A stretch of 63,537 bases of DNA, filler included, from Folioceros fuciformis (Eukaryota), in assembly GCA_049999805.1 (NCBI GenBank). It is 6 parts of 6 records of this genome, joined end to end, with 100 filler letters (N's around TTAATTAATTAA, not from the genome) between each part and the next. Parts side by side here need not be neighbours in the genome. Positions count along the whole stretch, not along the records: positions 24,303 to 41,162 come from JBNGIO010005246.1; 5 more parts are not named here. One strand, 5' to 3'. The notes below the pieces were generated by a model. The model was not told where the DNA came from. It worked only from the letters and a program-made list of their open reading frames with translations, and did not search any database. How positions within the stretch are numbered: the first letter of the stretch is position 1; each line of letters opens with the position of its first letter. Below are positions 3,001 through 58,838 of the stretch, in pieces. The position numbers were made by a program, and so were the translations under genes.

Positions 3001-6000
3001 GCCAAGTTCAATATTGCTACAACTCAGTGACAAGTTTGGCAATTTGTTGTCTGTCCCAAGTGAGAAATCTGCTGGTTACATTACTTACTTGGCAGCAAAA
3101 ATCAGTATCCGTCAGGTGAACAAAAATGGATTTGTTGACTACCATGGTCAAGATGCAAGTGCCTTCGCAAACATATCAACAGATGGAACTGGTGCCATTT
3201 GGTTATACTATCAACCATTGAAGAGTGGCCAGTTGTTCCTCGACTTGAGTTTCACGTCGAACCTCACACACTCGAAGGTTGTAGGGAGTCCTTTCGTTGG
3301 CAACGTTCTGCCTGGGGGTGTCCTTCCAGGCAACTGTATTGCTCGTGGATGTGGGTTAACTTCGGTTCTTGTTTGTACCAAACTGGCCTGCCCAAGCAAT
3401 CCCATCTTACTTCAGGTTCAGGATGGCCTAAATAATGTCCAAGGTTCTGATATTTATCCTGCCGTTTGCAAAGATTTGTCCATAACTGCTGATCCTAGTC
3501 TGGAGTTTAGCACTATTGTCCCCTTCAATGGACTATGCCTAGTCACGTACATAGCTAGGCAGGTATCTGTTGTAAATGTTTCCATCGAGTACGCTGGAAT
3601 CCCAATCGCTTTCAGCCCCTTTCAAGTTGTTGTCCGACCCAATGTGGGAGTCACTTCTCCGGAGAGGTGTGTAGCTACTGGCATCTTGGGGGGAATTATT
3701 GTTGCGGGCCAGATTGTAGCTATTAATGTGCAGTTGGTGGATGCGAATGGTGTCGCTTTGTTTCACAGTCCAGATCTCGGTAACAGCTTTGTAAGCTTGT
3801 CTCTAATCAACAGCAGCAATTTGGGTTCTTCGTCCCCTAGTTTTACATCACTGGATAATGGAAATGGAACTTTTTCTTTAGAGTTTCTGGCACAGAGTAC
3901 TGGACTGTATCATTTTAACATACTTGTTGGTGTGAAACAAATTCCGTTGGGCGGAAATAGAAATGGCTACACTCTACAGGTGCATCTTTTAAGTTTAATG
4001 ATGCATGATTGCTCTAAGTTGCCTCCCTTTTGAGAAACTTTGGCAGTATAAAATTTTCACAGCTTTCAAGCTTCATAATCAATGACTGCTGTGGACTGCC
4101 CTCCTTCTGATTAATCTCAGCACTATCAAATTTAACAAAATGTTGCGACAACAGCTTGACCAGACTCTGCCTGCAGGTGGTTTCAGGTCCCACGCTCGTA
4201 GAGAACACAGGTGTCAGGCTGGCGAGCAATTTAGCTGCCTACAGATCAGGCATAGATGAAATAATCATTGAAGTCCAGCCAGTGGACAGTTTTGGTAATC
4301 TGCAGGATTATATCGTCAGCTCCTTGGATTTTTTTGAGGCACAAATTTTGCAGCCAAATAGTGAGACTTTATACTCACCTCTGGTCCTCAGTTCTGGCAC
4401 CACCCTTTCTGGAATCCCGTATTATTTTTGGGTGCTGGAGTTTGTGCCTGTGCAAGCAGCGTTTGAAGGTGACCCTTGCGTGACAGCGTTCTGTTGAGAT
4501 GTACTCGCTCGTGTCTTTTGGTGGGTTCTCGAAGAAAGCTCAAAAAGACACGGTACCCCCTGCTGTTCACAGGTAGCCTTTACACGTTTAATTTTTTGTC
4601 GAGTAATGGGTCATCAACGGAATTGGTCCCTTCAAAAATCTCAGTTGTAACGTCTCCAGGAGTGCCATATATTCCAAATACTCAGGTATGCATTGGATGT
4701 ATTCATACCCTGAAAGCTTTTCACAAAGTGGCAACTGAAGCGTCATCCAAACGGTGTCCCAACGCAATTGCTTGTTGTCACTTCATCAAATGTGATGAAT
4801 TGTTTAGGGTAGAGCTTATGACACAGACAAGCACAGATACGTTCAAGTTCTGTTGACAGCTGTCTTTGACTCAGGTACTTGGTGAAGGGGCATCCATGGC
4901 ATTGGCAGGAGTTTTGACAACGTTTTTGGTACACCTCTACGATGAATTTGACAACCACATTACAAATTTCTCAGAGATTGCTGAGACTAAAATTTCTTTT
5001 AGTCTAAGGAGCTCTGTGCAGCAGAAATGCAGAGTTGTTTTTTGGCCAGCAGGTGCTATTTGCACATATGTTGCTCAAGCAAGTGGAATATACACTTTGG
5101 ATGTGACAGTTCGAGACTTGGGGACCAAACGGTTCCCTAACCTGCTTGTTGGTGCTGGCCCAGTGTTCACACCCTTCTGCAAAGCGTCTGGTGATGGAGT
5201 GGGTGGAGGTGCTCCCATCTATGCAGGCCTGTCAACCAGGTTAGCTGGGTTAATATAAGAAAAGAGCAGGGGTTCGCTAGTGGATCCTAATGCACAGAGA
5301 CAAAGGCATGCGTATGATGCATTGTGGTGACTGTGAGCCTTGCCTCTTGTCTTCATGTACACACAGGTTCACGATTGAGGTGTATGATGTACTTAACAAC
5401 ACCATATTAGATGCGGGAAGCTTGTTCAATGTGCTTCTTGAAAGTTTGGAAGATGTGAATGATCGATACTTTCAGCCAGATCCTATGTTCCCTTTGTGGA
5501 CGGGATCAGATTACGAAGTGTACTACACTCCTAGGATCGCTGGGTGGTCCTTGTTACATGTGACTAGAAGTTTTATGAATATCTCGGGTTCTCCGTTTTT
5601 TATTAAGGTTGCTGCTAGTAGTGTTGTGATTCGCAGTTTGCATGCTGTACCAAGCGGGCTGGACTTGACATTGTACCTTATTTTGCTGGTGGTCAGGTAC
5701 TTCCAGGTCCGGTGAGTGCGTTCACCTCAACAGTTGACCAAGCATCACTTGGACCATGTGTTTCTGGGGAGACCCATAATATCACTCTTCAGTCGAGAGA
5801 TAGTTCTGGAAACGTACGCCTATCAGATTCCGATGTGTTTCATATCACTAAAATTGTTGAGACTGCTCCAGACGAGTGGGCATCCGCTACGATGACCAGT
5901 CTTGGTCGTGGACTCTATGGGTTTAGCTATCTTTGTGTTCGTGCTGGTTCTAGCGAAGCACAGCCAAATGCTACTCAAATTGTGATCAAATACGGGGAGC

Positions 6001-9000
6001 TCGAGGTTGTAAACGTGGAACTTGCTGTCATTCCCGCTTCTGTTGATCTTTCAAAATGCACTGTAACTTTGAATGGCCACCGACATGCTATCACCATCAG
6101 CGAACCTGGTACCATATTGATAGTCAGCAGAGACTGGGCAGGGAACAGACTCTGGGGAGAGGCACTCAACTTTTGGGCGGTTCTGAAAACCGGTGACAGT
6201 AACGTAACTGCAACATTGAATGATACAATGGATGGCGCGTACCTACTGTCTTATACTCATACAGTCAGTGGCAATCACACTATTCTGGCCTTTCTTGATG
6301 AAGAGCTATTTTTCCAGGATTATGTTGTGGTTTACCCTGCTGATGCTGATGCTGAGAGTACAAAATTAATCTTCAATCCAAGTGGCTATACGGTTGGGAC
6401 CTGCCTCTTCCATATTCAGCTCTTTGACCAGTTTCATAACAACGTTTCAATTGATGCTCTGGTACGCTCAGGGCTGATGCTGATTGTAGCATCAGAAGAC
6501 ATCCCTCCAATTTTCGCTACCCCCAACCCTGTTGTTAACAGCAATGGATCACAATACGATGTGATTTTCACGACAAATCGTACAGGGGTTGTGCAAGTCC
6601 GGGTCAATGTCCTAGGGAAAACTGTCAGAGATCCTGATAACTTAGCTTTTCGTACACAAGTCCTGCCCGGCGATCCGGATCCTAGCAGATTTGTTCTTTT
6701 CGGAGCTGGCATCAAATCTGGTGGAATAGTGAATCAGGTATGTCATGTGTGGAAAAGTTGTGAAACCTGCCCTTGCAAGAGCTTTTCTGTTTTCCTTGTC
6801 TGGATTTCTGCTCTGTCGGGACAGGATCTCTTCAGTTTCTGACAAGAGCTTGCCGGTGTTATCTGATAGGCCACCCTTTTCTATGTCCGCATTAAGGATT
6901 CATTTAATAATACCGTGTTGACATGGCCTTCGAAGATCTTAACTGCTGCATTCAGTCCAGCGTTAGCTGTGACCAGCCCTCCTATCGTTGTGCAGATTGG
7001 TAATGGGACAGCTCAGGTTTCTTATGTGCCTGTCCTCACCATGGCAAACTTGGCAGTTTCCTTCATGTATGATGGGAAGGTGGTTGGACCTACGAGGTAA
7101 TTATCCAGTCATACAACAGCAGCCTGTGTCCGAATAGCAACCTTTGTTTTTATGGCGGTTCTAACATGATCTGTCTTGGCCCAGGTATGTGAGGGTGAAG
7201 TCGCAGGTTGGGTCATGGTCTGTGAAAGACAGTGTTGCCCTTGATTCTCTCGGAGTACCTATCGATCCATTACAACCGGTATTGGGAGTGGTTGGCACTG
7301 ACTTAATTCTGAGTATCCAGCCCCGAGATGCTGATGGCATCGATTTGCCTGGATCTCCAGACCCAGGCACTGTTGCATTTGCTGTTAGAATTGGAGACAG
7401 ATCATTCCCTGTTGGGCCAACGGAAAAGGGACCTTTTGGATTTATCGTGAATCTTTTGGTGTCTCAAAAGTATGTTGTGGAGATAACGTCCCTTGACGGC
7501 AGCATATCCATCAAAAACAGCGGATTTGTGGTGTTCCTCGTCCCTGGTCCTTCTCACCCTGCCAGGACTTTGTATCTGAAATCTGTGTCAACGGTTCTAA
7601 CCTATGCACCAGACACTTATACAGCAGACACGTTGTACAAGGAGGGTATGATGTTTCATGAGAATGATATCATTCAAGTAGGCGATGAGCTAGCTATTAC
7701 TCTGGTTCCATGTGACGAGTTTGGTAATCCCAAACTTTTCCAGCGGATAGAAGGTGGGGACGCATTCACTGCGCGAGCAGACCATGTTCCCAGTTCTTCC
7801 CTGAGCAGTTCCTCAGTCACGGTGAATAGTAGTGGTGCATTTCATGTTCTGTATTTCACACCGCGATTTGGAGGGATCTATGAATTGTCCATCTTCTTAA
7901 ATGGTGTACAAGTAAGAGCATTTTCCTTAGCAGTGGAGTCCTCCCGTATTGATCTCTCAGAATTTGTCTTGCGGCCGGTGGACGACATGGAAGCCGGGAG
8001 GCTTTTTGTTTTAGAGCTGGTAAACTATCTAGCTCCTCCGAGGTCTTTCCCATGTCATTGATTGCTTTTGAGAATGTTGATGCAGCTCGTGTTTTGTGCT
8101 TTCTGATGTATGTATGTATTTATGGCAGCATTACAACGGTGTCGACATCATTTCTAACTTGACTAAGCATCTATTTGTCGAGTTTCATTCCCCTGTGAGC
8201 GGTCTAAAGTTTTCAGCTGCCATGGAACCTACAGACAAGAGTTTCTCCTTCTCCATCTCAACCGTTATAACAGTTGCAGATGTCTATGACGTTATGCTTA
8301 TCGATTCTCAAACACAAATCACTGGAGAGGGTCCCTTGCCTACAGTAGTGGGATCAGTGCTGGTTGTTCCTGGAGATATTTCGAATTCGACCAGTACAGT
8401 AAATGTATCCCCTTCCTTCACTCGTGCGGGTGACGAAATTTTAGTCTCGGTAATAGGAAGAGATGTCTGTGGGAATTTGAACTGTTCTTTGCCGTCAGTT
8501 CTATCAAGTCCCCATTACTCACTGCAAGTGGACTTCGGCTGTACTGAGAATGCCTCTACGACTTTACAACTCTATTCTAAACCCAGGGAGTACTCTGGTT
8601 CTATTCGTTTCACTCCAACAAATCCTGGGTTGGTTGACATATCCATCAACTGGGTTGACACAGTCATAGAGGTTCAGATTGATGTCCTGAGTTATCATTC
8701 TCCTACTCTCATCGGTGCCATATTGTCCAATAATCTCAACAGAATAAAGGTCTTGTTTGACGAAGACACGGATAGTGGTAGGCTGGACTTTCCGAAGCCT
8801 ACGCATTGGATTTTCTGAATGTTCCGGGCTGCTTAGACTTTTGAGGACTTTGGTTGGGGCCATTTCTGTGCAGGCTATTTCAGTGGATCGTTCAACCTCA
8901 GTGGCGCAGATAGATGTGCAGCTTTTCTCGATGCGTCTGTTCTCCCAAAGCTCGGCTCAAACCCGTTGTGCACTTTCTATGATCCTAGGACTCTAATCAT

Positions 9001-12000
9001 TTCACTAGGATATGCTGCTCAAATTCTTGCTGGTGATTCCGGCTCCGGTGACTACATCACCATCAAGAGTGGCAGCATCTTTAATGCCGAGGGTAATACT
9101 GCTCCACTGTGGTTTTAGAAGTTGATCTGGAAAACTGCCTGGCATGCAGTGCCATTCATTGCAAACTCTTGGAAGAAAGCCAATGTTTGATGTGATGGTT
9201 GATGGTGACAAGCAGGTACTTCTGATCCTGTGAAAGGACAGGTCCCCTTGCAGCAGCCGAACAGTCCTGTTTCACCTGTTGCAAACCTCATTTGCCCAAC
9301 TTCAATTGGCCCCTGTGACCCCCTATTCCTGGATGCGTCAGCTTCATCTGGGTCAGGGGGACGTAACATGATATTCTCATATTCAGTACAGGGCTCTGGT
9401 GACCAAAGTATAGTAAATATTGTGAGAGCCATGTTGAGGAACACCCCTTCAGATCAAATGTGTGTTACGCTTGAGCCAGGCACTCTTCAGCAGGGTGAGA
9501 TCTATAAGTTCACAGTGACTGTGGTCAACTTTAGAGGAGACTCGGCCAGCACCTCCAGGAGTGTGAAGGCGACTGCAAGTCCGGTCCCTTTACTTTCCAT
9601 CTTCGGGTCTGATCAGGTGATGAATGAGGGATACTCTTGTACTGGTCCTCTACGCATTGAGCAGGTCGGGAAGTTGGTAGCAAATGTAACTCTGACCTTG
9701 TCATGGCTATCTGAAGCAGATCCGCATTGGCACCCGTTCTGAACTGATTCAAATTGAAGCAATTGGGACTCTTCCTTCCTCCAAGTCTGTTGATATATCT
9801 GGAAGATGCATTAATGGTTCTAGCACTGCTGCGGCTCTGTCCTCAACACTCGGTTATCAATGGTCACAGTCAGCAGGAAAACTACTTGACCTGAATGCCA
9901 CAATTGTCAATGAGCGTGTTTTGAGCATACCAGGGAGTCAGTTTGATACGGACAGTACCTATGCATTTATGGTTACATGCTACTTTGTTGGCTTCCCTTC
10001 ATCACAATCGACAGCCGAGATAAGTCTAGCCATAAAGTCTTCTTCCCTGTTATTGAGAATTATTGGTGGAAGTAGAAGTGTCAACTCATCTGAAAGCTTT
10101 ACGTTGGAAGCAGTGGTAATTGATCCAGATGATTCTGTAGATCCCTATGGCCTTCCTTACCAGATAAAGTATACCTGGAGGTGCGAACCTGATTTGGGGC
10201 CAAATGCCTTGTTCTTGTTTGAGAAGCAACCATCTAATGATTATGGAAGAATCATAACTGTACCTGCAGGAGTACTTGGCACTGGGACATACAACTTTTC
10301 GGTATTGACCCCTTGTAGTCTGCATGCATTATTTCAGTCTGTTGGCAATGTGTGCTAACAACCACACTTCTTCTTCCTCCTCCTCCTCTTCTTCTTCTTC
10401 TTCTTGTTTTTGTTTTTGTTTTTGTTTTTGTAGGTGACTGTGGACAAGGAACCATTAACTGAAGGAAGAACTGGAGTGACTGCATCATCCATTATTGATG
10501 CCAGTCCTTCTAATGTGCTCTCGGTATCTTTGGTTCTCCAGAATGCAGCACAATTTGCACACGGCATGTCCAGTGCTCAGCAGGTTATGCTGTGGTGTCT
10601 TTCCGATGGGCACGATTTCACTTGGTCCATCGAGTCAGGAACTGACAGGCGGACGTTTTCAGATATTACAGCTACTGCCGAGGGACAGGGTAGTCTTTTC
10701 CTTCCTCCGAACACATTAGTCGGAGGTGCTTCATATGCTGTCCTCTGTTCTGCCAAGTCAGAGGATGCTCAGGGTGTTGCGAAGGTTCACTTCTCAACGT
10801 GGTTTGATCCGTCTGGAGGCACTGTAACCCTAACCAGAGATCCACCTGATGGACCTGACATAGCTGGGCAGACACTTTATACGTTGGTGGCTTATGGATG
10901 GACGCAGGGTGAGGGGCAAGGAGCGCTACAGTACGAGTTCAGGTACATCACTGATAACAACACACAAACGGTCATCCAGCCTCTTTCGACAGTGAACTCA
11001 GCATTTGACTTCGTTGTCAGAGCTGGGTCGGTCACCTTCCAAGTCTATGTGGCAAATCCTGGCCTAATATCTGTCAGAAGTGAAGATGCTCCTCAGGGTA
11101 CCCTGTATCAGCTGCCAAGCATAATTGTGATGAACTCAGAATCCACAGGCACATCCTCTAAGGACACCAGGCGAAGTCTTGTGTCAGTGAATTCCCCAAA
11201 TCTTTTGTTGGGTAAGATTTTCATTGCAAGGGAGAGTGAAAAGCAATATTACAGTGCACTTCAGGTAATGGAGGTTTTCGGTTCAGAGTATATCGGGGAA
11301 GGTTCACTGAACTGCTCTCGTGATCCAAGCGTTGCCGAGGTGGTAAATGACATGCTCAGCATGATCTCTACCACAGACCCCCGGTACCCTCCCCCTTTTT
11401 TGAGTGACACAGTCTCATCAGGCACAGGACCTTATACAGCTCTTGCAGTCGCCTGTGCATACAGCAAGATTCTTGGCAGCCCAGGAAACATCGGCGACAA
11501 TGAACTCCACGCATCCTTAGGGATAATGGTCGACAAACTGCAGCAAGTTGCTCTTCATCGGCTTAATGTGCCATCTGTTTCAGGTGATAATGAGGTTTCA
11601 GTTTGTGCTTTCCGCATACATAATGCCCTGATTGTGAATGCCTTACCATGTACATATGTACCTGCCGTACTTGTGATGGCAGGGCAACCGTACAACCCCT
11701 GCTACTTTGATGCGGTTGATACCCTTCTGAATGCCATACATGCAGGGTGCACTGTGACCAGGGGCAGTCTCATGCATTTAGCCTCAAAAATGCCGATCCT
11801 TCTGGCACAGATTGTGGCAAACAGCGTCGGGTTCGGTGTGCAGTCTCCAAGCTATGTTTTCCGTCCAAGCTTCTCCCTTCTCTCCGCCCACAAACAGGTG
11901 TACGGAGAAGTTGCAACAGTCAACTTCACTGGAAGTGTCCAAAACTTCAAATTTGAAGTAGTTCATTCAACCCAGTTCCGAGGCAGTCTGAGCGCTGCTG

Positions 12001-12463
12001 TGGCATGCTTTCCATCTTTTTCACCCCTGTCAGCCGGAGAATGGATAACTGCCTACTTTTACAGGGATTTGCTGGCAATTCTCGAGGTGTGTGACTTTGC
12101 ATTACTGGGTCCAGAGGCCGGCCTCTCCCAAGTCGTCTCCTTACTTGTGTCCTTCACCAACCTAGTAGCTCCTCTCAACGACACCTTCAAAATCCTCCAC
12201 TTCACAAATGGCACTCTCAGTTTGGATGGCTTCACGGAAAGCAACTACAGGGATGGCACAGTGTCACTGCAGTTGATCAATCTCACTACAGATTATAACA
12301 CTTCATCTAGGCTGGTGCTAGCTCAGGTTGCTAGCCATGCATCAACCACCTTCTCATCAGGGATGCATAGCATCCTGTTACCTGGATTTGCTCTACTCGG
12401 GCTGCTGTGTTGGTGAACTTTCGTCGTGAACAGGATCTTCCGCTACAACCCGCAACTAGATGA
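1..12463 (+). CDS. Giant multi-exon filamin/Ig-like repeat + PKD/REJ-domain protein (5' truncated, >3460 aa)
   Basis: Consecutive + ORFs join in phase via GT-AG introns. Exons: <1-981, 1077-1946, 2122-2532, 2631-3979, 4177-4468, 4573-4685, 4875-5239, 5367-5607, 5697-6737, 6870-7096, 7185-8019, 8129-8777, 8874-9092, 9216-9616, 9720-10301, 10434-11583, 11683-12326, 12434-12463 (3466 codons from position 3). Many filamin-type motifs (RDSFGN, D..NGTY.VSY..AG.Y, I.GSPF). REJ-like motifs: CDPLFLDASASSGSGGR, IIGGSRSV..SFTLEA..IDPD..YTWRC, PSGGTVT..GWT..LQYEFRY. Confidence 0.85.
10366..10430 (+). repeat. Compound microsatellite (CTT/CCT)n-(GTTTTT)n in an intron polypyrimidine tract
   Basis: Directly visible just before the acceptor at 10433. 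Confidence 0.9.
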
Positions 12464-27743: not shown

Positions 27744-29260
27744 TCATTGGACCTTCATATATCTTATAAAGTCTCCTTCACTTGTTCCCCACTTGTCATA
27801 AAAATTGTGTAGCATACTTCTTCCTATGGAAACACATTGTGAAAATGTGCTTGCCATTGTGACATACATAATATCCCCTAGCTCTGCCCATATTGAAATT
27901 CGATTACTTTGTAAGTGCACTTTCTTCAACAAATTCTGTCTCCACACTTTTCGTACATGCCACAAGCATAATAATATAGGCATATTATGATTCCACACTG
28001 AACAAATAGCAAAAATCTTTACCTGACAATCATCAACAAGGAATGAACTAGGTGTCCAATCCTTGTTGATCTTTTCAACCTTCTTCCATAAAGCTGAAAG
28101 CCACCTGACAAGTGACTCAGTAGTAGCATCTTTTGTAATAGCCCATGCTACTAGAACATCGTTCAAGTAATGGTCAAAACCCATCACAATGAATAAGTGG
28201 TAGCAATTGCTGTTCAACCCAAAAGTTGTATCCACAGCTAGTATATTACCATTCCCGTAAAGCAACATGCAATTTAACATAAAAGGAGTTTGAATACCCA
28301 AAGCAAAAGGTTGATTCTCGCTTGATTGGTGGAAGACTATAGACACATTTTGCTCCAACCACAGGGACACTAATGTGGCATCATCCGGAGCTAGCTGCCA
28401 TTCACCAACTTCAACTTGTGTAAGTATATTGTGAACATTATATCTTTGCATATAATACACCTCTGTCTGATTGTTGATTCGAGCATATAATGCATCGGCA
28501 TCAAGATGCATTAGTTCATAAATAGGAACTTTGCAATATAGGCAATGCCTGATCCAATCCTTCTTTTTCTATGAAAGCTATGCTGCTTTGACATCACCAG
28601 GTAAGCCTTCGTACCTAGGCCCATGACATATAGCATTTGAAAGGTCAATATGCCTATGTTCCAAAAGACCAATCTCACCAACCGTAGGCCACACGAGAAA
28701 TTTCTTCACCCTAAAATTTGCTTGGCAACCATGCTTTGCACTCCCTCCATGGAGGACCTTATACTTAGCTGTATTAGCACCACGTGATACTCCCACCTCC
28801 TTTTGGCGAAAGTCTTCCGAGCCGAAAGAATACCAATACTTGCAAGCCAGCCTCACAATGTTAATGTATCCCTAAGTAATTAAACAATTTGCATACTTCA
28901 AACCTTCTTACGTAACATATGATGCAGTTGTATGCACTGTCGGTACTGTAGGGCGAGGTAAACTCCTTGGCCTCTTCGAAGTTTACCCCGGCCTCTTAGA
29001 ATCCTTCTTGTTGAAGTTCGTAGGATGGGAACTTATAGCACTCATTCCCCCAATAAAGTCTTCCACTCTAGAAAAGAGTATGTGAGCCACCTTCAATAAA
29101 GTCTTCCACTCTAGAAAAGAGTATGTGAGCCACCTTCAATAAAGTCTCCCACTCTAGAAAAGAGTATGTGAGCCACCTTCAATAAAGTCTCCCACTCTAG
29201 AAAAGAGTATGTGAGCCACCTTCACATGTTTTTGCTGCTCTGGTGACCTAGAATAGTCAT
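27744..29260 (-). mobile_element. Mutator-like (MULE) transposase pseudogene
   Basis: LAVDTTFGLN..HLFIVMGFD..VAWAI..FLVDD..LLCLWHVRKVW (MULE DDE core). Upstream GCQANFRVK..H.D..ICHG and VAHILFSRVEDFI. Broken by stops and truncated. Confidence 0.8.
29051..29223. repeat. 43-bp tandem repeat x4 inside the MULE 5' coding region
   Basis: caataaagtc(t/c)..actctagaaaagagtatgtgagccacctt starts at 29051, 29094, 29137 and 29180. Confidence 0.92.
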
Positions 29261-29612: not shown

Positions 29613-29716
29613 ATACCATAAGCTTGTGAGCTAGGATGCACTTATACCATAAGCTTGTGNNNNNNNNNNTGTGAGCTAGGATGCACTTATACCATAAGCT
29701 TGTGAGCTAGGATGCA
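29613..29716. repeat. ~31-bp tandem repeat spanning a 10-N gap
   Basis: ataccataagcttgtgagctaggatgcactt repeated. Confidence 0.85.
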
Positions 29717-30209: not shown

Positions 30210-30385
30210 CCTCAATTATCCGGTTATACGGATGCCAATTGGGGTGAGACGTGGACTAAAAGAAATCAACCTCCAGATTTACACTGATGTTGTGCAATAC
30301 TGCCATCGACAGGGGTTCGAAGAGACAAACCGCCATAGCCCTTTCTTCCACGGAATCGAAATACATGGCAGCTTCTGGTTCTTTT
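30210..30385 (+). mobile_element. Ty1/Copia RNase H fragment
   Basis: LSGYTDANWG and, in another frame, SKRQTAIALSSTESKYMAAS. Confidence 0.75.
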
Positions 30386-30652
30386 GAGCACCAGCACATT
30401 TCCTCGTATGGTTTTCCCTAACCAGTAAAAAATGCCTCGGGCAAGAATTCTCCAGGCCGTGGGCCGCTCTCGTCACCTGGTGGACGTGCCTCTTAAACAG
30501 AATCACGCCGGGCAGCCAACACCTCGCCACACAATCCTCTTCCCAAGGTGTGTCCGATTTATAATTGTTCAACCATTCCCTTGCACGAGGCCCCCAGACG
30601 TCCGCTTCCAGGCTTGTCGGCATATCACATTGGGCAAGGCAGCAGGCTGACA

Positions 30653-33437
30653 TCAAGAATCGTCTCCACAAGAACATACCCCATCCTTAAACTGATGGAC
30701 TCGGTGAGCATCCCGGATCACGATCTCTCGCTGTTCAACCCTGGAGACGATCTTGGTACCGCTATGGCAATGTTTGCACATTCGAAGATTTTTAGTGATC
30801 AGAAGTGGTGTGCCAGAATGTGTATTAAGCAGACCAAAGGCTAAGGCCAGTTTCTCAGCATGTCCACAGAGAGCATCCTCTCTCTCATCACCTGCAACTG
30901 GCATCACCAATCCTGGATGAAGAACGCTTCCCTGCTCCAGCTTTTGATTTAGACTGCGCAGCTTGGAAGAAATATTATCCGTCTTGTCTCCCACAACAAA
31001 TTCATAGACACGCTTCTCCACTTCAATGATTGCCTTTGCAGGCTTCTTTTGAGCACCAGCAGATTTCCTCATCTGGTCTATCATGTTTGCTTCCTCCCAC
31101 CTGCCAGCATCTGCATACATATTCGACATGAGCATATAGCTAGCAGCCTGTTGAGGTTCATGTTTCAATAGCTGATTGAAGCAGCACCTTCCAAGTTCCA
31201 CATTCCCATGCTTTCTGCACGCAGTTAGCAAAGACGTCCAACCCACACTGTCATGCCTAAACGGCATGCTTCGCAGAAAATGTTCCGCATCATACAAGTA
31301 GCCTGCACGGCCCATAACGTCAACCATGCAGTTGTAGTGCTCAACCGAGGGAGTGAAACCATATGTTTCTGTCATTGCTTTAAAATATTGCTGAGCTGCA
31401 TTCACCAAGCCCACATGACTGCAGGCTGCAAGAAGGGATGTGAATGTCTTCGCATCAGGTTCAATGTCACGTTGTCGCATCTCCTCGAAACAGCGGATGG
31501 CCATTTGACACTCGTTCTGCTGACCATAGCCGTGAATCAGTGCTGTCCATGTTGCAACATCTCTATCTGGCAACCTATCAAACACACACTGTGCCTCAAC
31601 CAGGCTCCCAAATTCAGCATACATGTGCACCAAGGTGTTACCAATCAGGATGTCGGCCTCAAGCCCTCTTTCAAGGATCTGCACATGAATCTGCCTACCC
31701 TGTTCTCTAGCCCCAGAGCTGGCTAACAGTTTCAGAATGCTGACATATGTCACTAAGTCCGGGGCAATCCCCTCATCGCGCATGCTCATGAATAAATCTA
31801 GAGATTGTTGATGGAGCCCTGCCTGAGCGTACCCAGCTATCATGGCATTCCACGCCACCACGTCCTTGATGACCAGCTTGTCGAACACTGTGCGAGCATC
31901 CCCAAAACTCCCACACTTGGCATACATGTCAACCATGGAGCTGGCGACAAATGGGTCTGCGTCCAAACCTAGTTCTCGAATATGCGCACATATTCTCTCT
32001 CCCTCCTGCACGGCACCTACACTGCTACATGCTTTCAGAATGCTCACAAATGTGATCTGATCTGGCATTGTGCAGGTCTGCAGCATGAAGCTGTAAATCA
32101 TCAGAGCCTCATGCCCATACCCATGCTGAGCATATCCAGCAATCATTGTATTCCATGTAACCACATCTTTGGTTGACAATCTATCAAACATGCTGCGAGC
32201 CTCTTCCAAGCTCCGGCATTTTGCATACATGTCCACAAGGGTGTTACCCATGGAGACATAAGCTTCTTCAAGACCTCGCTCGAGAACATGAGCGTGAATC
32301 TCCTTGCCTTTCTGCAATGCCCCAGTCCTCGCACACGCTTTAAGGATGGACACAAAAGTGACCTTGTTAGCTGCTGTCGTACCAGCATTTTGCATCCTCT
32401 CGTAGAGACTAAGGGCTTCTTGCCCTTGCCCATGCTGAGCATAGGCAGAAATCATGGCACTCCAAGTCACCACATTCTTGGACGGCAACCTGTCAAAAAC
32501 TTTGCGAGCCTCAGCGACACTTCCACATTTAGCATACATGTCCACTAGGGTATTGGCAACAGACAGATGTGAACAGAAACTACTGTTAAGGACATCTGCG
32601 TGAACCATCTTCCCCGACGCCAAATCCCCTGTGCTAGCACAAGCTTTAAGAACCGCTACAAGAACATGATTAGTGGGCTTGGCATCTGCCTGCCGCATCT
32701 TCTTGTACAGATGCACAACGTCCTTCGCCTGCCCGTGTTCACCATGGGCTAATATGATAGAATCCCACATGAACGTGTCTGGTACTGGTATTTTCTTGAA
32801 AACTTTGCTTGCTTCCAGCAGATTCCCATGGGATGCATACATGCGGATGACATGGTTGGCTACAAAAGAATTGCAGTCGTACCCAGTCATCACTGAGAAG
32901 GCATGTATCCGTCTCCCAACGTCCCAATCCTTCTTCTCAATGCTCTTTTTGAGCAAATGGAACAGCATCTGTACGGATACACCACTTCTCCGCACGTACA
33001 GACTCTCCACTGCTTGGAAGGCCTCCTCAAGCCTTCCTTTGTCGCAATGCTCCTTCCAGACTGGAGACTCTGATGAGCCCTCATCCCTGCAGATCCTGCA
33101 TAGCCCAAAAATCAATTGTCACGGCAACCATGTCTGCTCTCTGCACTCCATGCCTCATGCTACAGGGTACGTCCTATAGTTGGATCAACCTTCAGGGCAA
33201 AAAAATGAAATCATGCAGTGGCCAGAAAGGGGATCAATACCTGGCAGACGTTTCAACAACACATCCATCGTGGCCACGGACTGCACTGTAGGCCGGCTCT
33301 AGCTCAGGCACTGGGTATGTTGCTGTGAGCATGTGTAGCAGGCATCTCATGTGAAGGATCCTGTGACCAGCCTTGTTCAACCGAAGGAAAGTTAAAGTTC
33401 CGGAGTGCACAGTGTGGCGGTAACCCGGCGCCAGCAT
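30653..33437 (-). CDS. PLS-class PPR protein with E1/E2 and a DYW:KP-type deaminase domain (organellar RNA editing factor)
   Basis: Exons 33437-33241 and 33095-30653 (phase-2 GT-AG intron; 879 aa). About 17 P/L/S motifs, then KKPAKAIIEV..FVVGD, LCGHAEKLALAFGL, KNLRMCKHCH and HQFKDGVCSCGDDS*. Confidence 0.93.
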
Positions 33438-33797
33438 CGCCCCCGCCCCGAGCTTGCTTTCGTCGATTCAAACCAAACCAATTGGAAAGCGTGAAATCCA
33501 TAATGCGTCTGCAAGAGTTGTTGCAACAGCGAGGCCTTGTCGCGGCCGAAGTCGGGCATCAGACCTTCGGTAGACGTGATGGGATGCTTTTGAGTTACCA
33601 TGGTGTACATCAATGAAATTGGAAACTTCACTCTAATTGGCATAACTAGGGCTATATACCCTGGTTTGTGGGCGGTTAGTCTGCTCTGGAGTCTGTATGA
33701 GCAGTGGGATCGTGATTGCTGAGACAGGGTAGCTGAATTGGCTGAAGTAGAGACATCGGAGGCAAGGCAGTCAGCAAGAGTGCTCGGCTGAAGAGCC

Positions 33798-36112
33798 ATG
33801 AGCAAGCTGGATGGAGCCAGAAAGGCAGCATTCAGTAGTCTTCATCTTTGCAGGAGCTCTGGAGTTGTACTTCCAGAAGTGCTGAACCCGAGTGCGGATT
33901 GTAGCAGACAGGTCCGGGGAATCGCCAACGAGGCCACCACAACCAGGGCAGCAGGAGCCAGCAGATGGTTGCGAGAGACAAGGAAATCGTCCAGGTGCGG
34001 AGGCTTGAGGGGCATCTCACGGGCATCAGCTGAATTATCCAGTTCATGCAGAACATTTGCCTCCTCTGCTGCTATTGCCGCGGCCCCGTCTTCTTCGGTG
34101 GGGCGGTACTTGGCTTATGGGGGACTGTTAGGTGGGAGTGGCCTGCTCACCTACTACACCTTCCATGGCGCAAAGAAGGAGGAGGCCATGCACGAGGAGC
34201 AGACAATCATCAACTGGAGTGGCACGCACGAAGCTTCGACCAGATTTTACTTCCAACCACAGACCTTGCGGCAGCTGGAAAGCATTGTGGAATATTGCCA
34301 TAGGAAGAAGCAGAGAATGAGGCCCGTGGGGACTGGACTTTCCCCGAATGGAATCGGGTTGAGTGATGAGGGCATGGTTAACTTGGAGAAAATGGACAAG
34401 GTCTTGCACGTGGATGCTGAGAAGCGGACTGTGACAGTGCAGGCCGGGGCACAAGTGCAGGACCTTGTGGATGCTCTCCGGCCCCATGGTCTGACCTTGC
34501 AGAACTTTGCTTCCATCAGGCAACAACAGGTTGGAGGTTTCATCCAGGTAAGCAAAGCAATGTGGCTGGGATTGAAAAGGCGTCAGCTTTGGCGAGTTGG
34601 AGGGTGGACGGAAGTGATGTGTTGCTGTCTGTGATACTGCCAGGTGGGTGCCCATGGCACTGGTTCACATATCCCCCCCGTGGATGAGCAAGTCTTGAGC
34701 TTGAAGCTTGTGACGCCAGGGAAGGGAACGCTGGACCTTTCTGCTGAGTCTGATCCAGATCTGTTCCGCCTGGCTCGCTGTGGCCTCGGAGCTCTCGGGG
34801 TTGTTGCTGAAGTAACTCTGCAATGTGTGCCTGCTCATCGTCTCTTGGAGTACACATTTGTGACACACCCAAAGGTCGTCAAGAAGAAGCATACGTAAGA
34901 AGCATGCATGTGTTATGGTGGTAGTGCTTCTGAGGAAGTGTTGAAGCCATAGCTTTAAAAGCCGGGGAAGTGATAGGTCTTGAGGCTGAAGGTGGACACC
35001 ATGTGATTTGCAGGAAATGGCTGCGGGAGAACAAGCATATGAGATACATGTGGATCCCTGATGCAGACTGTGTGGTGGTGGTCCAGTGTAATCCCTGGCC
35101 TGAGGGCAAGGATTTGCCATCCTTCAAGTCCAAGTATACACCCGATGACGCATTGAAGCCTGCCAGAGACCTGTACAGGGAAGCAGCATCCAAGTACCAG
35201 TCCCTGCCTGAGGCATCGGACAGGACCCCTGTGAAAAAACTAGCAGAGGAGGAGTTACAGCAGCTCACATTCACGGAGCTCCGGGACAAGCTGATAGCTT
35301 TGGATCCGCTGAACAGGGATCACATTGTGTCCATCAACAGAGCAGAGGCAGAGTACTGGAAGCGCAGCGAAGGGTACAGGCATGGCTGGAGTGACCAGAT
35401 CTTGGGGTTTGATTGTGGTGGAGCGCAGTGGGTCTCGGAGGTCTGCTTCCACACTGGCACCGTCACCCACCCAGACACGCGAGACCTGACCTTCATGAGG
35501 GAGCTGCTGCACCTCATTCAGAAGGACCGCATGCCTGCCCCAGCGCCCATCGAGCAACGCTGGACTGCACGCAGCTCAAGCTCGATGAGTCCTGCTTCGG
35601 ATGCTGTGCCTGAGTGCATTTTCTCTTGGGTAAGTATGCGGACTTGACCGCAGTATCTTGTAAGACTGGCCTCAGTCTTTAGAGACTCTTACGTCCTCAT
35701 GTCTGTGCTCTTTTGGCGGTTTAGGTCGGAATCATAAACTACCTTCCCACTGAAGACGACATGCAAAGAGCTGCCATTACCAGGAAGTTCTTTGAGTACC
35801 GCAAAGCTGCAGAGCAGCAGCTCTGGGATAGATTTGGAGCCTACGAACATTGGGCCAAAATTGAGGTATGTGACTCATGCTAGAATCATCTCGCTTGCCT
35901 AAGGAGGAGGAGACTGGTGCCGGAACTGACGATGGATTATTGCTCCCTGACCGGCCTTGTAGATCCCGGAGGACGAGGAGTCGCTGAAATCGCTTAGGGA
36001 AAAGTTGCGAAGGCGATATCCTGTTGATGATTTCAATAAAGCTCGCAAGGAGCTTGACCCCCACAACATTCTAGCCAACAGACTTGTAGATCAGCTATTT
36101 CCACTAGTCTAG
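33798..36112 (+). CDS. GLDH: L-galactono-1,4-lactone dehydrogenase, mitochondrial
   Basis: Exons 33798-34547, 34644-34894, 35014-35629, 35725-35865, 35963-36112 (635 aa). Motifs NWSGTHE, GLSPNGIG, QNFASIRQQQVGGFIQVGAHGTG, PAPIEQRW, EHWAKIE, ELDPHNIL. N-terminal presequence plus a short TM segment. Confidence 0.96.
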
Positions 36113-36638
36113 CGTAGGATGACAAAATTCTAAACTTAGTAGGTGAATGTGAAAGTCTAAAAAATCCCGGACAAAACGTATTGCCATTCTTCGGCCCCCA
36201 ACCAAGAAAAAAGTTTCACCTACACACGATCTTTTCCCTCCCTAGGAGTTTACCACGTCGTGGCGGACTAGATTGCACGAACTTCGTACAAATTGTAAGC
36301 GAAAAAGAAAGACGACGCCCTACTCTACGCACGGCATACCAGTGATAAATTAAGACGGGCTGACGAGATATATACAGCTGAAATGCAGCTTCACAGCTCA
36401 ACTCTGTTCTCCTGCTGTGAGATCCTGGAATAAGAGAAAGGAGGAGATCCTCAACTCCTCCAAGATGTCAATCTTATCTCAATTTACCCCACAAGGACGG
36501 CTTCATGAGCAACCTGAGCTGCACCTGGACAAGGCAGTAAACAGGTCGAACCCACTGGAGGTGATATCTACCTTCCGACAGCAGAAATGGCGCATCACAT
36601 GGATGAACGCTGGTCACCTCTGGCCACAGCAGGCACAT

Positions 36639-39024
36639 TTAATCATCAAGATCACTTTCATGCCCGTCATCCCTTCGATGAGATTTCTTTGAGCCACTCT
36701 TCTTCGCCTTCTTGTCTTTCTTTTCCTTGAGCCTTCTTTTCTTCTCTGCCATGTCCACCCACTTGTAGTCACTGGGAATAAGGAAAGGATCAACTTCGTC
36801 ATCAGGACAATCATCATGCGGTCCAGTGGTACTTTGAGGTTGAGATCCCCTGATCCATGAAAACCAGGAACTTGAAGATGGAGGCGGTATGTCCCCCTCC
36901 TTGATAGTTTTAGATTCTTGAAAGTGTCCAGGGCTTGAGAGAGGAGTGGAGAACTCTTCAGATGGGCGCAACTCCTCAAACTTGGTGAACGTCACGAACA
37001 GTCTGATCGTAGGAACGACCGGGATGGCAATCTGCAAGATCAACGACCAAAGTTGAGAATTAAGGCCAGGACAAAGTGGTGCCTCGCATGAGGGCAATAT
37101 CCTGTACCAACAAATACTCAATGGTCAACAGAAACAAGCACCCAAAGGTTTTGTATGATGACGCAGAGTGCATACTGACCTTGACTGGGAAGGTCCCTGC
37201 TGGGAGCTTGGTGGTGAGGAGTTCTCTAAGGCGCCGAACTGCTTTTACCTTGTTTGCTAAGATATCCAGCAGTGGCAGCAACTCCTCAGATTTCAGTGGG
37301 AAATCTGGCGTCAACCAAAGGACAGGCCTCAGTCCCTTCTTGTACTCACTTTCACTCCCTGGCTCACTGCCAGCACCTTTCCTCCTGCGTCCAGCCTCTT
37401 TAGCTGATCGTCTGCTGCTCTCCTTGCCTTTCCTGTAGATGACAGCCTCGTCTGCACTGACATTAGAGTTTCTTTCCCTGGCCTTTCTGTAAGCCATAGC
37501 CTCTTCTGCTGTGAAACTAGAGTGCCGTTCCTTAGCTTTCCTCATTGTCAAAGTATCTTCAGCACTAAAGTTTGAAGGCCTTCGATCAGCGGACCGCCGA
37601 GTAAGTTCTTTGCCAGGCTTTTTTGAGGGATTCCTCCAACCAGGATCCGAACTAGTGCCTCCAAAATCAAAACCCCTGTCCCGACTTGGGGACTCCCTAG
37701 AAAAGGATGATCTTTTCCCGTCCCCTTTCTTTTTACCCCAGCCAAACCAGCCTTTCTTCTCCTCCTTGTTGCTAACTGGCCCTCCCCTGGGAGTTCCACC
37801 AAGAGGAGTGGTCGCACCATTCTGCTCAGGGCTAAGACGGTGATCATACCCGTTTTCACTACCCGCATAATCGAAGCCTCTCTCATCATCGTACGCCCCA
37901 TATCGAGTTCCCGGCCTATCACTCTCAAAGCCGGCCTCAGAATCATAATCAGCATTTTCACTCTTTAAGGCAACCTCCAGCTGCCGTTTCTCCTCCTCTG
38001 TGAGCAAGTCTCCATAATCCTCATCTAATTCATCTGGCCTCTCACCCTCTGTAGCGAAGAGTTCCTCGTCAGTCATAGCACCTGGGACCCGCCGGGATCG
38101 TACGCTGACCTGCACGTGATGCATATCATAGATCTTGGCCTTCCAGGCCCCGACCATCTCCGTCCTCTCCTGGCGCCTCCAAGTTAAATGCGAGATGAGC
38201 TCAGCTTGTGTCACATCGATGCCAGGCCTGAACATATTTGTCTGGGACATAGCAGCCACTTCCTGTGCTATTTCTGCTTCAGAGGGCTGAATGCCAGCCC
38301 CTTCTAAAGCATTGGTAACCTCTTTCTCCTTGTGAGTGAGAACCACTAGAGAGCCAGAGGGTAATTTCCCGTCCTCGCTACCATCCCCCAAGAACAAGAA
38401 ACTCTGATCCGACCGATGGATCCTGAAACCATCGAAGCCAGCAAGAGTCATATCAGCCCGCAGATTAGAGCCTCGCTTCCAAATCCGATAGGTGTCGGAC
38501 GGCGCAATTCGTCCTATGAACGGGATGACAGAGCTCTCAAAGTGAAAAGTGAGTTCCATATAAAAGTCCCGCATCCGGCGCATAGTGGCCGTCACACGGG
38601 GAAGCCGGCGACACCACTTAGCCCAAGCCATAGGTTGGTAATGCCTCGTGATGATCATGGCAATTCCCTCTTCCCTAGCACACACAGCTTCCTGCAACGC
38701 ACTCCAGCCATTCTCATTCTGCAAACTAAAATCCGCGCCTGCCGTCATCAGCATTTCCACTGCCACAGCGTCGCCCAACCTCACTGCCAAGTGCAAGGGC
38801 GTTTCCCTGCCCGGCACATCCCTCCTGTCAACCACGGCCGAGATGGTTTCGGCCCGCTGCTCGGCGGCGATGGACTCCGACTCTGTCACCACTTCCCCCG
38901 CCTTGGCAGGGCGCGGCAAGCCGGTGAGAATTCTGTGCAGCCCGCTGTAATCTCTTCTGGCCACAGCATAGTGCACGGGACTGTGGCCATACACGGCCGC
39001 TTCCTCCAACGACAGCTGCGCCAT
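36639..39024 (-). CDS. ANKRD13: Ankyrin repeat domain-containing protein 13 family (ankyrin + GPCR-chaperone domain)
   Basis: Exons 39024-37180 and 37031-36639 (745 aa). Motifs ETPLHLAV, GWSALQEA, APSDTYRIWKRGSNLRADMTLAGFDG, LWLTPDFPL..ELLPLLDILA, GTFPVK|IAIPVVPTI, DPFLIPSDY. Confidence 0.93.
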
Positions 39025-40277
39025 GGTCGCAAGTGTGGAACACCCAAACCTAGCACATGTGCGGCAGCCAACACCCCGGCCAAGCTCGAACCGACCAGAC
39101 CAGAAATTGCTACACCCTGCGCCGCAGCTCTACGTTCCGAGCCAACTCCTCCAGCTAGAGGACATCAAGGCTGCGCAAGACGGCAATGAGGCCACATTAG
39201 ACAAACAGACAACCGCGTCAATCCACGACAGCGTAGCAGCCACCTCCAGGAAAGCGATGCATGCGCCACAAACCCTCACCCGCAGCAGAGATGGCAGAAC
39301 TCAAAGCCATGTCCTCCTAGCCCAGCGGCGGCGCTGGTACCCCCGTCATCCCCAGGGAACCGCAGAGCGGCACCAGAGAAGTTGAAATTACGAGCCCGGT
39401 CTAGAATCAGAAACGCCTGTGGAAACCTGCCATCAGTGCACATCCGAAACCTCCGACCAAGGAGCCAGTCCTCCAATCTGCATCATACCCTAACTCCTAC
39501 CGCACCGGGAATGCTCTCCCGCTCCAATCCCTCCCTCCCTCCCTTTACTNNNNNNNNNNNNNNNNNNNNNNNNNNNNNNNNNNNNNNNNNNNNNNNNNNN
39601 NNNNNNNNNNNNNNNNNNNNNNNNNNNNNNNNNNNNNNNNNNNNNNNNNCTCCCTCGTCACACACCCTTGCCGCAGCTGCGCCAAGCTTAACAAGAGACA
39701 ATCTCGAATGACGAGCGAAATTGCTTCCGGCTCCGACGGCGGCCCGAGCCTCACCTCTCCGCCACCTCGGGATCTCCAAATGCTGCTCTAGCGAAGGGGA
39801 ACCTGTGCAACAGCAAAAGGAGGCGAGGAGCAGAGACGCCCGTCTGAGGCCGGCAAGCCGAGGCCTGCCGCTCCTGACTCAATCCCGCTACCGGGGCACC
39901 GCAAGAGCAGACATATCACCGACAGTGCAGCAGCGAGCACACAGAAGTGAGAGACGAGGAAGGCCGGGCGCAGCAGCTGGGCAGCCGGAGGAGAACGTCC
40001 ACCATGGCCGATGAAAGGCGCTCTGGCTGGCGCGGGCGGCAGGCTGGCTGTGGCTGCGGGCTATGCCTGGGACCCGCACCACCCAGGAGAGAGCGAGAAC
40101 GAGGGCGTCCGCCTTTCCCTTGCCTTCACCTGCTCCATTTTGGCTCTCATCTCGACTGGGCCTGCAGTCTGCAGAGGCTGGGGCTGGGGCTGGGGCTGGC
40201 GTATCCTTCTGGCGTGGTTTTGACGCATGCCGTCACTCCTGGAGTCTGCCTGACTGACTGACTTCCTTCTTCCAGGG

Positions 40278-57120: not shown

Positions 57121-58838
57121 TTAATCTTCAGAGACAAATATGATTTGTCCAGGTTGAGACCAATGGCAAACGCTCAATGCCCCGGGCTTGCCATTCAATA
57201 TCCTCAAGGCTACATGTTTTGGGTTCCACTTACTTGTATCTGTGTGACATACTGCAATATTGGTGATGGTAAATCCAGGTTTCGTTGTAGACTCTAATGT
57301 GACGGCATACAACTTGTCCGTAGAACTAGAATGACAAAATGCCGTCAAAAATGGGAAGACTGCAGGATGACAAATTCCATGCTTGGATCCCACCCCAGCC
57401 TTGAGTTCCACCTTTGTTACTTTGAATGCACCTTTGCTGATGAGTTTGTCATTAGCTTCAAGAGTTGTGCTTACTAGTGGTGTAATAGCATTTGCATTCG
57501 TTGGGTTTGATAACACGAGGCCAAAAAAGTCAGCCATATCTTCCAGTGATGAGATGCATCCCTTGAACTCTCCTTGATTTTTGGACGTTCTATGATGTTG
57601 GCAAAGTTGTGCAGTTGTTTTCATAGACTTGGCCATGTAGGACTTGGTGGGGATGTGGAATTCCTCTAGAAAGTGAGGAACATTTTTCTCTTCAACAGAT
57701 CCAAAGGCTTGAACCAAGGCACGAGGAAGGAATGTCTTTGGATAAGCACTTTGCTTCAAGGAAGAAAACCTCCACGCCGGTACTTCATGTATGTTGTATA
57801 TGCCAGTGGAAGTAACCAAATCAGATTCACGAAACCAAAAGGATCGTGCTGCTTCATCTTTCACATTATCACGAGCTTCCTTCTTGGATGAACTTGTATG
57901 GACATCCATGTTGTTCATTTCCATGATGTTCATATCATTCATTTCCATGATGTTCATGTCATTCATTTCCATGACATTCATGTCATTCATTTCCATAGGG
58001 TTCATATCATTCATTTCCATGACGTTCATGTCATTCATTTCCATGATATCTTGCTCATTGGCTACCTTGATGTTACCATTGTCCATCTCCATGAGCTCAT
58101 TGTTGCTCATTTGTAACTCATCTCCTTGATTCATTTCCATGACATCCATCCCCATGTCCATACCCATGAAGTTGATGTCTTGGAACATGTTCATATTCAT
58201 CATATCATTCATATCCATATCCATCATCATGAACATAAACATCATCATATCCATGTCCATATTCATCATGAATTCCATCATTTCCAAAGGCATCATATCC
58301 GGTCCCATATCTGACATCAACATCATCATCATGAAATTACTCTCCGTAATTTGGGCACTTGGAACATTCATATTGTCCAACTTGTTGTTGCACATGGAGT
58401 TGGTCAATGAGCAAAACTGAGCGGCAACTGTTTTATCACGCAACAAAGCCTTGTTCTCAATCAAGTTCTTGAAGTCTTGAACTTGGGTTTCACTTAAGTG
58501 TGATGCCAAGTATTCCCAAGCTTGTGGAATATTGGTACTCATTTTCTCCCTCCAGTAGCTTAATACAGTTGGGTTGATACTGCTAGTTCGCACATCCAAA
58601 AGCCTTCTAGCAGTGTATGGTTGAGTCTTGATGGAAAGACATTGAATTGTGAAAGTAGCCTAGACAATGAAGAGACAAACAAGTTCAAGCTTTCTTGAAC
58701 AACATAGAAAAACACATAGCACAAAATGAAGGAGATTTACACACATCCATAAACCAAACACATCACACTAAACATGACACAACTTCTACTCACCAAAATC
58801 AACAAAAGCATGAAAAATTGTCCTCCAATGGTGGCCAT
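57121..58838 (-). CDS. Secreted BURP-domain protein with a Met-rich repetitive region
   Basis: Exons 58838-58794 and 58659-57121 (527 aa). Signal-peptide-like MATIGGQFFMLLLILATFTIQCLS. BURP domain FWFRESDL..FLPR..GEFKGCISSLEDMADF..CH-x10-CH..CHTDTSKWNPKH..VCHW. Confidence 0.92.
57901..58044 (-). repeat. 24-bp coding minisatellite encoding MEMN(D/N)M(N/D)(V/P/I) x6
   Basis: attcatttccatga..ttcat.tc units visible directly. Confidence 0.92.

Follow-up and report, generated by a model that had tools for sequence, protein, structure and literature searches.

U-to-C editing of organelle transcripts is found in hornworts, some lycophytes and ferns, and the DRH, GRP and KP classes of the proteins associated with it were reportedly defined by Gerke et al. 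2020 and Gutmann et al. 2020. The present locus, situated in a stretch of 63,537 nucleotides (filler included) from the Folioceros fuciformis assembly GCA_049999805.1, hereafter the window, raises the question whether it encodes a natural enzyme of this kind: a reading made from the sequence alone had proposed a full-length U-to-C editor candidate of the KP class, with a noteworthy variant DDS terminus and retained zinc ligands and catalytic Glu. The motifs on which this proposal rested (KKPAKAIIEV, HAEKLA, CKHCH, and CSCGDDS followed by a stop codon) were all recovered when the minus strand was read; the strand had not been stated, and the interval given covered the deaminase domain but not the gene, which runs from 33437 to 30653 with one intron (see Table 1).

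A stop-to-stop open frame of 821 codons extends over positions 30653-33118 of the minus strand. Since it offers no methionine before codon 51, an upstream exon was sought. The region 30300-37300 was compared with four public sequencing runs: a DNA assembly from which the window may itself derive (X1), a separate study of the same organism (X3), and the related organisms B (X4) and C (X6). X3 was taken to represent RNA because three GT..AG introns of a neighbouring gene were spliced out in it; its record 9 (3,425 nt) followed the window from 30300 to 33094, continued from 33240 to 33569, and showed 0 differences from it. The same exon joint was common to X4 record 12 and X6 record 17, i.e. to three organisms, while X1 contained the stretch in one piece with the intron retained (record 1). 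The gene consists of two exons with the ATG at 33437 and the stop codon (TGA) at 30653, minus strand; the spliced frame encodes a protein of 879 residues, and an in-frame stop precedes the first ATG. As had been claimed, the product is full length at these 879 residues, but only once the previously unseen first exon is added. Its first 40 residues contain neither Asp nor Glu, which fits the presumed function of the exon 1 presequence in organelle targeting. The neighbouring gene codes for L-galactono-1,4-lactone dehydrogenase (GLDH), with only 51-62% identity to all named matches from ferns, seed plants, liverworts and mosses; the genes of the region are tightly packed and their introns short.

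Table 1. Features of the two-exon gene; positions refer to the window.
Feature	Position	Strand	Basis
5' untranslated part (at least)	33438..33569	-	X3 record 9 reaches 33569; in-frame stop upstream of first ATG
Exon 1 coding part, ~66 residues, presumed organelle-targeting presequence	33241..33437	-	Exon joint seen in RNA contigs from three organisms; computed frame
Intron, 145 nt, GT..AG	33096..33240	-	Absent from X3/X4/X6 contigs, present in X1 DNA; splice letters read
PLS-type PPR tract (P1-L1-S1 triplets, then P2-L2-S2), RNA recognition	31250..33067	-	Pfam PPR, PPR_1, PPR_2, PPR_3; register by eye
E1 and E2 motifs	31049..31249	-	Pfam E_motif (E 2.7e-14) at residues 637-698 of the 821-codon frame
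DYW:KP deaminase-like domain, 131 residues	30656..31048	-	Pfam, PDB sequence matches, profile +52.4 bits
KKPAKAIIEV	31048-31019	-	Sequence
HAEKLA	30862-30845	-	Sequence
His811-Ala812-Glu813 (zinc His, KP-type Ala for Ser, catalytic Glu)	30854..30862	-	Aligned to OTP86 HSE
Lys834 (Lys88 in KP numbering, K713 of KP6, K915 of OTP86)	30791..30793	-	Counted from C-terminus
Met838-Cys839-Lys840-His841-Cys842-His843	30764..30781	-	KP Met, two catalytic-zinc Cys, His for usual Asp, second-zinc His
CKHCH	30778-30764	-	Sequence
C-terminal element: His866, Cys873, Cys875 (second zinc), Asp877-Asp878-Ser879, TGA	30653..30697	-	Aligned to OTP86 H947, C954, C956, D958
CSCGDDS and TGA	30676-30653	-	Sequence

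Pfam matches to the 821-codon frame were far beyond chance (DYW_deaminase, E 1.2e-30; E_motif, E 2.7e-14; PPR families, E down to 7e-81). The PLS class is characterized by P, L and S motifs in alternation, with E1 and E2 after them. This order was recognized from Pfam and from motif lengths set by eye (35, 35-36 and 31 residues, then 35, 36, 32, 34 and 33); the 131-residue domain occupies residues 749-879, i.e. the C-terminal end of this PLS-class PPR protein.

Assignment of the domain to the DYW:KP class is based on motifs, a profile test and trees. Among the traits given for the class are the KP box and the Ala or Cys that follows the zinc-binding His (described in parts of PMC11845758), as well as the same Ala/Cys together with a Met before CxxCH (described in parts of PMC9478123). 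In the Folioceros domain, Lys-Pro stands for Pro-Gly in the N-terminal box (KKPAKAIIEV), Ala for Ser after the zinc His (HAEKLA), and Met for Val before CxxCH (LRMCKHCH; M92 in KP numbering), the latter being present in 56 of the 65 HAE/HCE domains surveyed; the counterpart of Lys88 is Lys834 within ITKNLRMC. The deletion of three to four residues in the xHP stretch, a further trait of the class, appears as a four-residue gap after GDK in the comparison with the structures 9kfx and 7o4e; additional single-residue gaps were found against 7o4e (one) and 9kfx (two).

For the profile and tree analyses, the 131-residue domain was searched against 1.84 billion representatives (2,269 matches at E <= 0.001, of which the best 150 were used), and residues 600-821 against a collection of 5.8 billion proteins (154 matches among 793 candidates, of which 120 were used). 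The 263 proteins gathered, 239 with a complete domain and 24 dropped as incomplete, form a set enriched for relatives of the query, not a random one. With the query excluded from both, a KP profile was built from 49 domains and a PG profile from 123; the query scored 200.9 bits with the former versus 148.5 with the latter, and all held-out domains favored the profile of their own class (KP, 15/15, +18.1 to +66.4; PG, 15/15, -26.6 to -59.0). In the FastTree phylogeny of 239 rows, the query belongs to a group (support 96) whose 46 rows include 45 of the HAE or HCE type. An IQ-TREE analysis of 95 rows (all 65 HAE/HCE domains, 20 PG domains drawn at random from 114 ending in DYW, and 10 others) enclosed the query and all 65 HAE/HCE rows within one clade of 68 rows (SH-aLRT 97). 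After removal of the KP box, the position next to His, the Met/Val site and the terminal residues, the nearest rows of the query were still all HAE. When, with the class columns removed, the query was constrained to group with the 20 PG rows, the log-likelihood was lower by 49.35, which the AU test did not reject at 0.05 (p 0.0705), the constraint also grouping the PG rows, unlike the free tree. Judged from motifs, profile and trees, the domain belongs to the DYW:KP class, as had been proposed. The gene is an ordinary further member of a catalogued class: a 2026 survey is reported, in parts of PMC13386178, to have extracted 3,761 KP domains from 68 land plants, and parts of PMC10030945 give over 1,400 PPR genes for hornworts. 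The query's own protein was not among the matches listed from the 5.8-billion-protein collection, the best of which shared 61% identity with it.

Within the class, a tree of 43 proteins, built from the 310 C-terminal residues of each (two of 45 were omitted as too short), resolved two groups. One, a clade of 32 rows (100/100), contained the query together with the proteins ending in DRH and GRP, described as two hornwort variants in parts of PMC9478123; the other, a clade of 11 rows (100/100) without the query, included the named proteins of Ceratopteris and Adiantum. The fern DYW:KP proteins (Ceratopteris richardii, Adiantum) have KP motifs in common with the query and 42-48% identity to its last 222 residues among the matches listed, but differ from it by their separate clade and by ends such as DMF, DSF and DIF. 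The hornwort DRH/GRP proteins came closer, with 53-61% identity over the same residues among the matches listed, the shared PLS-E1-E2-DYW architecture, the KPA box, HAE, and the Met before CxxCH. In contrast to them, however, the query ends in DDS, has CKHCH for CxDCH and a linker between KP box and HAE that is 2-3 residues shorter than in the usual KP domain of 132-133 residues, and is located outside the crown clade of 17 rows (99/98) formed by the DRH- and GRP-ending proteins; by its end and its position it belongs to neither subgroup. The relationship to these hornwort variants nevertheless makes a hornwort source probable, with which the low identities of GLDH and the compact arrangement of the genes agree. 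It was found in an unresolved basal grade with proteins ending in DDL, DKL, DHL, DHR, DHV, DDT, DSI, DRP, DYV and DDS. That this grade represents a third, little-described hornwort-type KP lineage, branching below the DRH+GRP crown, with freely varying ends (DDS, DDL, DDT, DKL, DHL, DHR) and in some members CxHCH, appears quite unlikely.

At the third residue of CxxCH, Asp predominated (PG-like domains, 170 of 174; KP-like domains, 53 of 65); a His at this position was restricted to the query and five relatives (6/65 KP-like, 0/174 PG-like). A single clade of CxHCH proteins was considered and rejected, as three changes would be needed and monophyly was obtained in 4% of the bootstrap trees. 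Mildly unusual in the query are only this His and the place outside the DRH and GRP groups.

Sequence matches in the PDB included a synthetic PPR-DYW protein (9kfx, E 5.3e-35), OTP86 (7o4e, E 2.1e-25; also 7o4f) and DYW1 (7w86, E 2.1e-25), PG-type structures to whose fold family the query belongs by sequence. The query shares with them both sets of zinc ligands, the catalytic Glu, the lysine of the active site and the C-terminal Lys-Asp pair. Aligned to OTP86, for which parts of PMC7611903 assign the roles of the zinc ligands and the catalytic Glu, the catalytic zinc and acid set comprises His811, Glu813, Cys839 and Cys842, and the second (structural) zinc set His843, His866, Cys873 and Cys875; all eight residues of the DYW fold signature (PF14432), HxE(x)nCxxC plus the second zinc site, are present, so that the retention of zinc ligands and catalytic Glu asserted beforehand is correct. 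The query departs from these structures by KPA instead of the PG box, by gaps of 4, 1 and 1 residues before HAE relative to 9kfx (a region read here as the gating region), by the missing terminal Trp that stacks on a His of the second zinc site, and by His in place of D922, the Asp of CxDCH in OTP86 that is said to stabilize the inactive state (PMC7611903, in part). Furthermore, S828 and S893, through which the lysine of inactive OTP86 is held to the glutamate according to the same source, both correspond to Ala in the query, as is usual for KP domains.

Functional comparison is provided by the designer proteins KP1-KP7, consensus constructs with demonstrated U-to-C activity, whereas the query is a natural gene and was likened to them by motifs rather than by alignment. 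It resembles them, especially KP2, KP3 and KP6, in its class, in the counterparts of Lys88 and Met92 and in the Ala of HAE; it also shares the Asp at position -3, present in all subgroups except GRP. U-to-C editing by the designer proteins, and editing in both directions by KP6, are reported in parts of PMC9478123; the activity of natural KP proteins was described as unknown in a passage of PMC11845758 (February 2025), and a limited literature check of titles and abstracts revealed no assay of a natural KP protein.

The locus is a two-exon nuclear gene of a land plant for a PLS-PPR protein with a DYW:KP domain. That this protein acts as an editing factor, with U-to-C as the most likely direction on account of its class, seems rather likely; its import into an organelle, its RNA target and the direction in which it edits are inferred. 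The protein would be imported into plastid or mitochondrion, where the PPR tract would bind one RNA sequence just upstream of the target pyrimidine, and the C-terminal KP domain would change this pyrimidine a few nucleotides downstream of the PPR site. From the fifth and the last residue of each PPR motif, read with the PPR code as generally known, the target is predicted to be roughly U-n-n-Y-A-n-U-U-n-G-U-n-U-G-n-U at positions -21 to -6. The reaction would most probably be reverse editing by the route proposed for the designer KP proteins, with Lys834 attacking the uridine next to Glu813 and the catalytic zinc.

The main competing explanation, unlikely but still to be reckoned with, is an editing factor that, notwithstanding its KP motifs, acts C-to-U or bidirectionally on its native site. 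KP6 possesses both activities, and single substitutions are reported to switch direction (PMC9478123, PMC11845758, each in part); the zinc-Glu deaminase core of the query is complete, and the query is positioned outside the DRH/GRP crown, the basis of the U-to-C-only designs KP2 and KP3. The lysine is ambiguous in this respect: it is described as essential for U-to-C in designer KP proteins (parts of PMC11845758 and PMC11713852), and in KP6 it restrains C-to-U and is required for U-to-C, so that the presence of Lys834 speaks against C-to-U activity; however, since the active-site lysine is conserved in C-to-U (PG) domains as well, Lys834 is in itself no guide to direction. The alanines at both lysine-tethering positions argue in the same sense against the competing explanation, as do the clearly KP-like profile of the whole domain and the residues at positions 116 and 119 (counted from the C-terminus), which are Ala and Val, i.e. 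in the states that shifted KP6 towards U-to-C according to parts of PMC11845758.

Very unlikely, given the following comparisons, is a catalytically dead domain or a decaying gene whose product is a mere RNA binder or inert. The ortholog contigs of organisms B and C were ~6% divergent from the window (X4 record 12, 117 of 1,808 letters) and contained no coding indel and no frameshift over ~2.4 kb, three indels being confined to ~60 nt past the stop codon. Synonymous and replacement counts rest on 40 listed of 516 differences; between 30656 and 31358 the listed differences comprised 9 synonymous and 14 non-synonymous codons in X4, and 7 and 10, respectively, in X6. Neutral change is expected to give replacements and synonymous differences at ~3:1, a ratio taken from general knowledge, and among the listed differences the replacements of the orthologs are fewer than that. 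Decay might be read from the fairly frequent replacements (14 of the 23 codons listed as changed in X4), from the His at the conserved Asp of CxDCH and from the shortened linker. Yet from HAE to the end only 3 (X4) or 2 (X6) listed replacements are opposed by 4 synonymous differences, neither a zinc ligand nor the catalytic Glu has been lost, and correctly spliced transcripts occur in three organisms. The gene is intact, transcribed, spliced and under moderate constraint.

The DDS end, singled out at the outset as a noteworthy variant, lost this status in the wider survey. The 49 HAE-type domains, query included, showed 31 different end triplets (DRH in 9, GRP in 4, DMF in 4, DDS in 2, and DDL, DDT and DKL in one each, among others), and the second DDS belongs to P0176, a protein with 47% identity to the query over 702 residues; the 173 HSE-type domains ended in DYW (114) or DFW (24) in most cases. 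Comparison of the 36-residue tails, the length found after CxxCH in the query as in most relatives, showed that most domains have Asp at position -3, KP-like (44 of 53) as well as PG-like (153 of 167); the final position (-1) was Trp in 154 of the 167 PG-like domains and was filled by 12 different residues among the KP-like ones. In OTP86, as described in parts of PMC7611903, a conserved Lys is the bonding partner of the Asp at -3, the residue between Asp and Trp faces the solvent, and the Trp is stacked on a His that binds zinc; the query retains both Asp877 (-3) and its partner Lys847. A greater diversity of the last three residues in KP proteins is also described in parts of PMC11845758. 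In the organism B ortholog, the only end difference listed, C>T at 30661, turns the second Asp into Asn (DNS), and in organism C the last codons are without difference among those listed. The DDS end is real but unremarkable because of the 31 triplets in 49 HAE-type domains, the second DDS and the DNS ortholog; the end is free to vary in the class, and only the Asp at -3 is conserved. That it is a sequencing or assembly error concealing a true DRH, GRP or DYW end has practically no probability, barring a mistake common to all the runs, and nothing was found in its favor: the independent X3 RNA contig showed 0 differences, the letters are identical in organism C, the one substitution is all that sets organism B apart, and the unrelated P0176 also ends in DDS, others in DDL and DDT.

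For the biology of the family, the DDS end itself changes nothing. If the third hornwort-type lineage did exist, its enzymes might lack autoinhibition or differ in direction from the DRH/GRP types, and could be nearer to the ancestral KP enzyme. Reverse U-to-C editing is chemically puzzling and, according to passages of PMC11845758, has so far been demonstrated only with consensus-designed KP proteins; a natural KP gene that is intact, expressed and conserved in relatives is a reasonable candidate for a native assay, one among more than 1,000 others.

The PPR gene, encoding the DYW:KP editing factor, and the L-galactono-1,4-lactone dehydrogenase gene, whose product catalyzes the final step in plant ascorbate synthesis, are arranged head-to-head, with a gap of approximately 115 nt between the outer ends of their RNA contigs. 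The dehydrogenase is only 51–62% identical to its best named matches (ferns, seed plants, liverworts and mosses). Its gene is convergent with the transcript of the ANKRD13 frame, and a single RNA contig spans both. A MULE/ZSWIM frame, probably a transposon remnant, lies downstream of the PPR gene at a distance of approximately 2 kb. Elsewhere in the window, the filamin/REJ frames look like one very large multi-exon gene; the joint presence of filamin and REJ domains is an unusual combination for a plant.

Features of the window around and beyond the PPR gene
Feature	Position	Strand
Series of long open frames, filamin repeats (E 2.9e-17, 2.7e-11) and REJ domain (E 2.3e-08)	1-12416	+
274-codon open frame, MULE transposase domain (E 8e-11) and ZSWIM RNaseH-like domain	27744-28568	-
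L-galactono-1,4-lactone dehydrogenase gene	33684-37031	+
GT..AG introns of the dehydrogenase gene	34544-34639, 34895-35013, 35629-35723	+
Intron in the RNA contig spanning ANKRD13 frame and dehydrogenase gene	37032-37179	-
Open frame, ankyrin repeats and ANKRD13 C-terminal domain (E 8.1e-94)	37060-39129	-
512-codon open frame, plant-specific BURP domain (E 7.4e-42)	57121-58659	-

The window contains 21 N runs of 10, 44 or 100 letters (1,360 in total), which are scaffold gaps; several of the 44-letter runs are paired, with 12 bases between them. None of the 21 falls within the PPR gene, the closest being located at 29660-29669 and 39550-39649. Over the central PPR repeats (31700-32640), the summed contig depth rose 10- to 100-fold in all four public sequence runs compared, with numerous short partial matches and false joints among the run contigs; this rise stems from the very large size of the PPR family in the organisms concerned and not from the copy number of the PPR gene.

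Five relatives from the protein-database searches (P0005, P0154, P0155, P0161 and P0176) share with the PPR gene product a histidine in place of the near-invariant aspartate of CxDCH. Among the complete domains in the matches listed, this substitution was found in 6 of 65 KP-like (HAE/HCE-type) domains, the query included, versus none of the 174 remaining, PG-like domains. Since the six His-bearing proteins were not supported as a clade, the change from Asp to His may have arisen more than once.
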